From Escherichia phage CCU7, in sequence record PV806175.1: DNA of 64,000 nt; one strand, written 5' to 3'. Made by a program: the position numbers and the translations under genes. How positions within the stretch are numbered: the first letter of the stretch is position 1; each line of letters starts with the position of its first letter. Below, one piece after another: positions 4,765 to 6,468 of this stretch. The notes under the pieces are model-generated. The model saw nothing but the letters and a program-made list of their open reading frames with translations. It did no database searches and was not told the origin of the DNA.

Positions 4765-6468
4765 ATGGCTTTTACAGTTAATATAACTCCTAAAACACCT
4801 ACTGGAGTTATAGGACAGACCCAGCAGTTTACTGCCACACCTAGTGGTCAGGCTGAAGGTGGAACTATTACATATGCTTGGACTTTGGATGGTGTTCCGC
4901 AAGATGGAGCTGAAGCAACTTTTAGTTATGTACTAAAAGGACCTGCCGGTCAAAAGACTATTAAAGTAGTTGCAACAAATACAGTTCCAGAAGCTGAAGC
5001 TGAAACAGCAGAAACTACTGCAACTATCACAGTTAAAAATAAAACTCAGACAACTACTCTGGCTATAACTCCTGATAGCCCTGCTGCTGGAGTAATCGGA
5101 ACAGCTGTTAAATTTACTGCGGCTTTAGCTTCTCAACCGTCAGGCGCATCTGCTACGTATCAATGGCACGTTGACGGTTCTCCTGTGAGCGAAGCAACTT
5201 CTGCTACATTCAATTACACTCCTACCACAAGCGGAGTTAAAAAAATTAAATGTGTTGCCCAAGTGACGGCAACAGACTATGACACAAAAGAAGTTACTTC
5301 TAATGAAGTATCACTGACTGTTAATAAGAAAGAAAATAATTCTGCGGTCGCTGTTACTCCGGCTTCTCCGGCGCCAGTAGAAATTGGAACAGCAACAACA
5401 TTCACTGCTAATGTAAGCAATCAACCTAGTGGTGCTGCTATTGCTTATACATGGAAAGTTGACGGGACGGCTGTTGACGGTCAAAAGCAATCAACCTTTA
5501 AATATACACCAACATCTGAAGGAACTAAGTCTATAACTTGCTCCGTCACAGTAACTGCAGCTGATTATGTTGATAAAACAGTAGAATCATCGGCGGTTTC
5601 TTTGACTGTAAATAAAAAGGCAAATTCTTCAACACTAAAAATTACGCCTGAGTCTCCGACTACGGTCTTTGGTGTTCCTATTACTTTAACTGCAAATGTC
5701 TCTAGTGCACCCTCAGGTGCTACTACATCATTCCAGTGGTCAATGGACGACAGTAATATTCCAGATGCAACTTCTGCTACGTATAAATTCACTCCAACCG
5801 AGGTCGGAAGTAAAACTCTTAAATGCACCGTATCTGTTTCTGCAACAAATTATGTTACAAAAGAAATTTCAGCAGAAGCAACAGTAGTAACTAATAATGC
5901 GACATTTAATAGTGCCACCATTTCTTTATCTCCGCCATCAGTTAATACTACTGTTGGTGAAACTGCAACTTTAACAGCATCTGTTACTGGTGCTCCGGGT
6001 GATACTAATATTGTGTATTCTTGGAAGAAAGACAACGTAGCAGAAAGTAATTCTACTAATACTTACAGTATTGATACCTCCTCGGCAGGTACTCATACAA
6101 TTAAAGTTGAAGCAGTATTAACTAAAGATAATTATACTTCAAAGACAATTAGTTCAACCGCTGAAGTTGTTATTGCTGAACGGACTCCAATTGAACCAGA
6201 AGGTGAATTACCTTATGTTCATCCTCTTCCACATCGTACTTCAGCTTACATCTGGTGTGGTTGGTGGGTTATGGATGAAATCCAAAAAATGACTGAAGAA
6301 GGTAAAGATTGGAAAATCGACGATCCGGGTAGTAAGTACTACTTGCATCGTTATACGCTTCAGAAGATGATGAAAGACTATCCAGAAGTTGATGTTCAAG
6401 AATCACGTAATGGATACATCATTCATAAAACTGCTTTAGAAACTGGTATCATCTATACATATCCATAA
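4765..6468 (+). CDS. hoc: Hoc outer capsid decoration protein with five tandem Ig-like repeats
   Basis: 567 aa; repeated about 95-aa units each with (T/A/S)Y(A/Q/T/S)W..DG and TxxYT motifs, then C-terminal capsid-binding-like domain; hairpin terminator downstream. Confidence 0.75.
   Translation: MAFTVNITPKTPTGVIGQTQQFTATPSGQAEGGTITYAWTLDGVPQDGAEATFSYVLKGPAGQKTIKVVATNTVPEAEAETAETTATITVKNKTQTTTLAITPDSPAAGVIGTAVKFTAALASQPSGASATYQWHVDGSPVSEATSATFNYTPTTSGVKKIKCVAQVTATDYDTKEVTSNEVSLTVNKKENNSAVAVTPASPAPVEIGTATTFTANVSNQPSGAAIAYTWKVDGTAVDGQKQSTFKYTPTSEGTKSITCSVTVTAADYVDKTVESSAVSLTVNKKANSSTLKITPESPTTVFGVPITLTANVSSAPSGATTSFQWSMDDSNIPDATSATYKFTPTEVGSKTLKCTVSVSATNYVTKEISAEATVVTNNATFNSATISLSPPSVNTTVGETATLTASVTGAPGDTNIVYSWKKDNVAESNSTNTYSIDTSSAGTHTIKVEAVLTKDNYTSKTISSTAEVVIAERTPIEPEGELPYVHPLPHRTSAYIWCGWWVMDEIQKMTEEGKDWKIDDPGSKYYLHRYTLQKMMKDYPEVDVQESRNGYIIHKTALETGIIYTYP

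Follow-up and report, generated by a model that had tools for sequence, protein, structure and literature searches.

The gene considered here lies on the plus strand at positions 4765-6468 of a 64,000-nucleotide (nt) stretch of Escherichia phage CCU7 (PV806175.1), which is hereafter called the window. It is a single open reading frame with an ATG start, encoding 567 amino acids (aa) followed by a stop codon. Its product matches the PHROG profile phrog_1149, 'Hoc-like head decoration' (expectation value, E, 5e-148), and, in the PDB, chain 5vf3_Z, the 376-aa Hoc of phage T4 (E 1e-173). The gene is hoc, encoding the head outer capsid decoration protein of an RB69-like (Mosigvirus) coliphage, and it coincides exactly with the reading frame that an earlier note, made from the sequence alone, had assigned to a Hoc homolog. 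The length given there for T4 Hoc, 376 aa, likewise agrees with 5vf3_Z and with the T4 locus, where the protein has three immunoglobulin (Ig)-like units. Along the window the gene order is uvsW (minus strand), inh (plus), hoc (plus), homologs of T4 24.3 and 24.2, rnlB and gene 24 (minus), an order that is the same in RB69 and, inverted, in T4; hoc sits between inh and 24.3/24.2/rnlB/gene 24 alike in the window, RB69, FP43, CAU_ECP01 and T4. Window positions 1-4764 are 99.1% identical at the nucleotide level to the Mosigvirus phages PECP20 and CAU_ECP01. With an isoelectric point (pI) of 5.09 and a net charge of -13 at pH 7, the window Hoc is acidic in the sense used for this protein family (pI about 4-5; Fokine et al., 2023, Viruses 15:1517, PMC10385173), as is T4 Hoc (NP_049793; PDB 5vf3, 8t1x), which occupies the same gene position.

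Unit borders within the protein were set by a recurring linker motif (TVKNK, TVNKK or VVTNN), and units were labeled by type as A or A' (the first unit), B, X, Y and Z, the last in a T4-type form (Zt) and an RB69-type form (Zr, or Z'). Five tandem units of 93-98 aa precede the C-terminal domain (Table 1), in keeping with the five units of about 95 aa described in the earlier note. Comparison of the units by BLASTP gave significant matches in nine of ten pairs (E 2e-11 to 2e-33), the remaining pair, D2 and D5, being linked solely via D3 and D4. An AlphaFold2 model built on a 32-sequence alignment (mean predicted local distance difference test score, pLDDT, 85.3) contains five all-beta blocks over residues 1-475, in which 10-residue block means lie mostly at pLDDT 83-96 and the beta strands of D1 at about 90. 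The Pfam family PKD (PF00801) scored 56.2 bits against a cutoff of 23.5, in five stretches, so that domain prediction, which had been suggested as a check, returns a count different from the three of T4. Ig_2, Ig_3 and I-set were also above their Pfam cutoffs (PF13895, 40.2 against 27; PF13927, 32.4 against 30), with their best matches in D5, the unit that aligns to T4 residues 194 onward. The motif (T/A/S)Y-x-W-x-x-D, said to be shared by all units, is exact in D1-D3 and appears as the variants SFQWSMD in D4 and VYSWKKD in D5; similarly, T-x-x-Y-T is exact in D2 and D3, with variants in D1, D4 and D5, so that the proposed motifs are broadly correct and hold strictly for part of the array. The top Foldseek matches of the model in the PDB were complement MG arrays, five-domain cadherin ectodomains and ICAM-1 D1-D5; these are generic multi-domain beta-sandwich strings with low global template modeling (TM) scores, informative for fold class only, and the low scores reflect a flexible, beads-on-a-string arrangement of domains.

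Table 1. Features of the hoc region in window coordinates, with the comparisons on which each assignment is based.
Feature	Position	Strand	Comparison or basis
Ig-like D1, residues 1-93 (93 aa), type A, T4-D1-like	4765-5043	+	99% aa identity to FP43 D1, 82% to T4 D1, 57% to RB69 D1
Ig-like D2, residues 94-189 (96 aa), type B, T4-D2-like	5044-5331	+	100% aa identity to FP43 D2, 81% to T4 D2
Ig-like D3, residues 190-285 (96 aa), type X (RB69 D2)	5332-5619	+	95% aa identity to RB69 D2; no T4 unit above 52%
Ig-like D4, residues 286-378 (93 aa), type Y (RB69 D3)	5620-5898	+	98% aa identity to RB69 D3; no T4 unit above 40%
Ig-like D5, residues 379-476 (98 aa), type Z (Zr; RB69 D4, counterpart of T4 D3)	5899-6192	+	97% aa identity to RB69 D4, 43% to T4 D3
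C-terminal capsid-binding domain, residues 477-567 (91 aa)	6193-6465	+	homology to T4 Hoc 286-376
Recombination junction in the D2/D3 linker (T-V-N-K codons): 11-nt microhomology ACTGTTAATAA	5317-5327	+	gene nt 553-563; in-register and 288-nt-offset mismatch maps
FP43/Mizar-like patch (3' end of inh plus D1-D2) in PECP20/CAU_ECP01-like backbone	4564-5327	+	mismatch comparison
Shine-Dalgarno-like AAGGA	4754-4758	+	6 nt 5' of the hoc ATG; overlaps inh stop codon (4753-4755); read from the sequence
Intrinsic-terminator-like hairpin AAGGGGC-TTCG-GCCCCTT, then T-rich tail	6473-6500	+	5 nt past the hoc stop

The C-terminal domain, which the earlier note had taken for the capsid-binding part, is identical to T4 Hoc at 88 of its 91 residues. 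All 13 of its aromatic residues are conserved, including the counterparts of T4 W306, W309 and W310, of which W306 and W310 are named at the T4 capsid interface (PMC10385173), and the domain also matches phrog_21694 (E 3e-40). Alignment to T4 Hoc is split, with residues 1-199 of the window protein corresponding to T4 residues 1-199 and residues 385-567 to T4 residues 194-376, such that D3 falls in a gap and about 185 residues (D3 and D4) lack a T4 counterpart. Relative to the A-B-Z arrangement of T4, whose D1 and D2 are 81-82% identical to those of the window, X and Y have been added between B and Z, and the last Ig unit is itself just 43% identical to T4 D3. The earlier description of an 'expanded array' is therefore apt in that there are two more units than in T4, but wrong in implying an expansion of internal repeats, since the gene is an out-of-register chimera, as set out below.

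Growth of the array through tandem duplication within hoc itself, as the direct repeats of the earlier note would imply, is one alternative explanation, and such duplication is real among relatives: D2 and D3 of FP43 Hoc are 81% identical, and Hocs of 568-570 aa with the arrangement A-B-B-B-Zt contain three B units. The window gene does not resemble these. Its units share 22-52% aa identity (36-52% between neighbors) and 55-65% nt identity in gapped global alignment, the longest exact DNA word common to two units measures 7-14 nt depending on the pair, and Tandem Repeats Finder reported no unit-length array in hoc, just a 15-nt run of GAAGCT hexamers; the best hit of a direct repeat scan was 62 nt at 73% identity. 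Further, D3 and D4 match units of RB69 Hoc at 95-98%, and not their own neighbors. We therefore reject internal duplication for this allele, regarding it as very improbable here, while it holds for FP43-type and UGKSEcP-type alleles. From their sequences the five units are old, diverged paralogs. The same values bear on two further statements in the earlier note, that hoc carries direct repeats at the DNA level and that these make it prone to recombination: as there is no unit-length array, and exact matches between units stop at 14 nt, neither is supported for this allele.

Comparison with related phages instead divides the gene at a single point. Gene nt 1-566 are 99.5-99.6% identical to hoc of the Mosigvirus phages FP43 and Mizar (472 aa), whereas nt 553-1704 are 96-97% identical by megablast to nt 265-1416 of the RB69-type hoc (RB69, PECP20 and CAU_ECP01; 471 aa). 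Mapping of individual mismatches gave two to FP43 within gene nt 1-560, and 30 to CAU_ECP01 within nt 570-1704 when CAU_ECP01 was offset by 288 nt, which equals one unit. The switch is placed within ACTGTTAATAA by the two sites that flank it: gene nt 552, which holds the last RB69-type-specific mismatch, and nt 564, which holds the first FP43-type-specific one. The FP43-like segment also extends upstream of hoc: positions 4564-4764 show zero mismatches to FP43 or Mizar, and CAU_ECP01 differs there at seven sites (4569-4650). By these alignments hoc is a chimera of two four-Ig alleles, and not a product of internal duplication. The FP43/Mizar-type Hoc of Mosigvirus, whose first 563 nt (A and B) are about 99.6% identical to the window, as are the last approximately 200 nt of inh, then has a second, duplicated B followed by a T4-type Z (A-B-B-Zt). 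The RB69/CAU_ECP01/PECP20-type Hoc, also of Mosigvirus, is 95-98% identical to the window over X, Y, Zr and the C-terminus, with flanks at 99.1%; in place of the A and B of the window it has a single divergent first unit, A' (57% identical to window D1). An allele of the first type contributed D1-D2 and the last ~200 nt of inh, and one of the second type (A'-X-Y-Zr) D3-D5 and the C-terminus. In the simplest history, the end of unit 2 in A-B-B-Zt was joined to the end of unit 1 in A'-X-Y-Zr at the 11-nt microhomology in the conserved TVNK(K) linker; because the parents were joined one unit out of register, the product, A-B-X-Y-Zr, has one unit more than either. We put the probability of this reading as a whole, that is, a Hoc with a five-Ig string formed as an out-of-register chimera of FP43-type and RB69-type alleles, at roughly 85%.

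The opposite polarity, in which the five-unit allele is ancestral and the RB69-type and FP43-type (four-Ig) and T4-type (three-Ig) alleles arose from it by deletion or replacement of units, merits consideration, as loss of units by unequal exchange is as feasible as gain, and shorter odd architectures are known (B-Y-Zr, 379 aa; A-B-B, 378 aa). However, the A' unit of RB69, at just 57% identity to window D1, is not derivable by deletion, nor is the B-B-Zt of FP43 present in the window allele, and existing four-Ig alleles match the two halves of the window gene at 97-99.6% identity, which indicates a recent join. Moreover, when units were typed in 134 close homologs and five reference Hocs (the window, T4, RB69, FP43 and TH12), A-B-Zt, which is shared with Tequatrovirus, was by far the commonest architecture. 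An ancestral five-unit allele is, on this evidence, improbable.

Expressed as cluster representatives plus listed members, and hence not as abundances, the typed architectures comprise A-B-Zt (376 aa, n=78, plus two missed by the linker pattern), A-B-B-Zt (472 aa, n=30), A-B-X-Y-Zr (567 aa, n=9 including the window Hoc, plus two missed by the linker pattern), A-B-B-B-Zt (568-570 aa, n=8, including the named phages UGKSEcP1 and UGKSEcP2) and A'-X-Y-Zr (471 aa, n=7), together with one example each of B-Y-Zr, without a D1-type unit (379 aa), A-B-X-Zt (472 aa) and A-B-B, with the tail of the last Ig unit attached directly (378 aa). Alleles with three, four and five Ig units thus co-circulate in close relatives, and the comparison of repeat number across related phages that the earlier note had recommended shows five to be nothing unusual. 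The Hocs of the E. coli phages UGKSEcP1 and UGKSEcP2 have five Ig units and the same C-terminus as the window (66-67% identity over 100% of the query), but reached that number through repeated duplication of B, their units being similar at the DNA level, unlike the A-B-X-Y-Zr of the window. Across about 650 described Hoc homologs, a conserved C-terminal domain is combined with a variable string of Ig-like domains, ranging from one in Enterobacter phage PG7 (233 aa), much shorter than the window Hoc, to 10 in the much longer Hoc of Serratia phage Muldoon (1174 aa) (Fokine et al., 2023, Viruses 15:1517, PMC10385173). Given this range of one to 10, five Ig units are unremarkable; a five-Ig Hoc is ordinary, and variable Ig number has already been published.

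A more mundane possibility is that the 567-aa frame is an assembly chimera of two co-occurring phages, as phages of one genus, infecting the same hosts, carry both parental types of allele. Against this, the stretch shared at the junction is 11 nt, in our judgment much shorter than the k-mers that assemblers normally use; the frame is unbroken, and its product is modeled as five folded domains. The junction also recurs in two assemblies that are independent and of different origin. One is an ENA metagenome scaffold (167,846 bp) and the other is contig AAACAY010000010.1 (169,407 bp) of NCBI assembly GCA_004188065.1, each of which carries a 1704-nt hoc that is 98.2% identical to the window gene, in the same gene neighborhood. 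A search of 5.8 billion protein clusters found a 567-aa representative at 97% identity, and at least 10 distinct 567-aa sequences are present among the 15 listed of that cluster's 24 members. Because the same junction is found in two independent assemblies, together with at least 10 distinct 567-aa sequences, an assembly artifact is excluded, its probability being negligible to our minds, and the five-Ig A-B-X-Y-Zr is a circulating allele. As both independent assemblies share the junction, a single founding event is indicated. The metagenomic allele differs by a C-to-A change at gene nt 554, within the microhomology, which converts TVNKK to NVNKK; the linker motif therefore tolerates substitution.

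The allele is, then, already in public data, where it is unnamed or mis-named. The exact window protein was absent from a collection of 15 billion proteins, in which the 97%-identical cluster was present; no record in the INPHARED phage collection covered at least 80% of the gene; and a probe spanning the junction had pEB20 as its sole match, at 86.5%, with a different junction. A 169-kb phage contig carries one of the listed 567-aa cluster members, under the annotation 'endonuclease [Salmonella enterica]'. More generally, Hoc is mis-annotated as 'endonuclease' in records of Salmonella enterica, E. coli and Shigella sonnei (e.g., EAA6275647.1), and as 'baseplate wedge subunit' in phage FP43 (FP43 locus 3001-4419). 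Contigs of about 169 kb in bacterial assemblies (e.g., GCA_004188065.1) carry a T4-type uvsW-inh-hoc-rnlB-gene 24 neighborhood, and on that account look like phage genomes.

The window allele may exemplify a broader process. In pEB20 Hoc (472 aa, A-B-X-Zt), whose four Ig units end in one of T4 type, X follows B as in the window; its B-to-X switch, however, lies approximately 25-35 nt further 3', after the B-type TQTTTLAVTP strand, and the join is therefore independent of that in the window. Along with B-Y-Zr and A-B-B, this A-B-X-Zt architecture points to several independent exchanges or deletions of units near the linkers. It can be argued that the hoc genes of RB69-like and T4-like coliphages form a cassette system, in which at least five unit types (A/A', B, X, Y and Z) are repeatedly exchanged in and out of register at the TVNKK / xQTTTLAVTP linker and first-strand region, yielding co-circulating three-, four- and five-unit fibers in genomes that are otherwise approximately 98-99% identical. 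We would give this proposal even odds; the window allele would record one such event, with a mapped 11-nt junction, and pEB20 an independent B-to-X join about 30 nt away. Our survey of the literature for domain shuffling or duplication of Hoc in the Tevenvirinae, the coverage of which was incomplete, found nothing specific on hoc.

In T4, one Hoc monomer sits at the center of each gp23* hexamer, making 155 per capsid. Hoc has been proposed to mediate the adherence of phage to mucus, and it serves as a display scaffold in T4 nanoparticle and vaccine work. By homology to T4, the C-terminal domain of the window Hoc would dock one monomer at the center of each hexamer of the major capsid protein, and the five N-terminal Ig-like beta-sandwich units would project outward in a roughly linear array, compared with three in T4. 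Published work describes Hoc as an acidic, linear fiber, present once per hexamer, in which the Ig domains are variable (PMC10385173); as Hoc is a linear string of domains, a fiber longer than that of T4 is a reasonable inference for the window. The four-domain T4 fiber is 180 Å long (PMC10385173), which would suggest roughly 270 Å, or about 1.5 times the T4 fiber, for six domains, if each unit adds as in T4. By analogy, changes in adherence to mucus or glycans, in binding to bacterial surfaces or in the dispersion of particles are plausible, and speculative; binding of mucin glycans or bacterial surfaces has been reported just for T4 and RB49 Hoc (PMC10385173).

An account in which the allele is real but its domain number is without functional consequence, reflecting neutral modular drift of a dispensable decoration protein, has to be set against such effects. 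Hoc is dispensable in the laboratory (PMC10385173), and several architectures coexist in near-identical backbones, both points in favor of drift; on the other hand, it has been argued that long Hoc genes are kept at a cost to the genome (PMC10385173), and both the frame and the domain fold are preserved in all alleles seen. On balance we consider purely neutral drift possible, if somewhat unlikely.

Several points weigh against the chimeric, long-fiber interpretation. We infer the direction of the event, with the five-unit allele derived and not ancestral, from parsimony alone; for homologous recombination, 11 nt of microhomology is very little; and the real parents may differ from the sampled FP43 and CAU_ECP01 sequences. 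As for the fiber, the predicted TM score of the AlphaFold2 model (0.48) leaves inter-domain geometry undefined, so that neither shape nor length is fixed, and the C-terminus is modeled as alpha/beta at low confidence (pLDDT 44-64). Any adhesive role for the X and Y units in particular would be argued by analogy, and the extra units could be selectively neutral, Hoc being dispensable in the laboratory.

These findings leave current understanding of Hoc unchanged, as variation in its Ig number is published and the allele is already in public data. If, however, the exchanges were selected, for example by the mucosal glycan landscape or by antibody pressure on the highly immunogenic Hoc, then the length and composition of the fiber would be rapidly tunable. 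Natural alleles with three, four and five Ig units in near-identical genomes, for which unit boundaries and points of exchange are mapped, would also offer a ready isogenic series for fiber length and unit type, bearing on traits such as mucus retention, aggregation, host encounter and antigenicity.

With regard to expression, the start of hoc lies 9 nt past the stop of inh, and hoc therefore probably rides the inh transcript, as judged from this arrangement of the sequence. No match to the T4 late promoter TATAAATA was present on the plus strand just 5' of hoc; this core does occur just 5' of uvsW, on the minus strand (4066-4073), and a variant motif, TAATAAATA, lies on the plus strand at approximately 4052-4060, upstream of inh. 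Counted over the whole window, TATAAATA appears 19 times; shuffles give an expectation of 8.5, and none of them reached 19, an excess that is consistent with T4-type late promoters across the structural-gene region.

The neighboring inh (4087-4755) also matches phrog_1149, weakly (E 2e-4, with Inh residues 90-215 aligned to profile positions 1017-1134, in its C-terminal region), and pairwise BLASTP of Inh with the Hoc C-terminus was not significant (E 0.46); it is possible that Inh and Hoc share a capsid-associated domain. Where T4 has the homing endonuclease gene segE between inh and uvsW (T4 locus 5058-5675), the window (4037-4086), RB69, FP43 and CAU_ECP01 have just a spacer of about 50 nt. 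Elsewhere in the window, the GC fraction rises to 0.44-0.46 at 10001-11500, from a background of 0.34-0.40.

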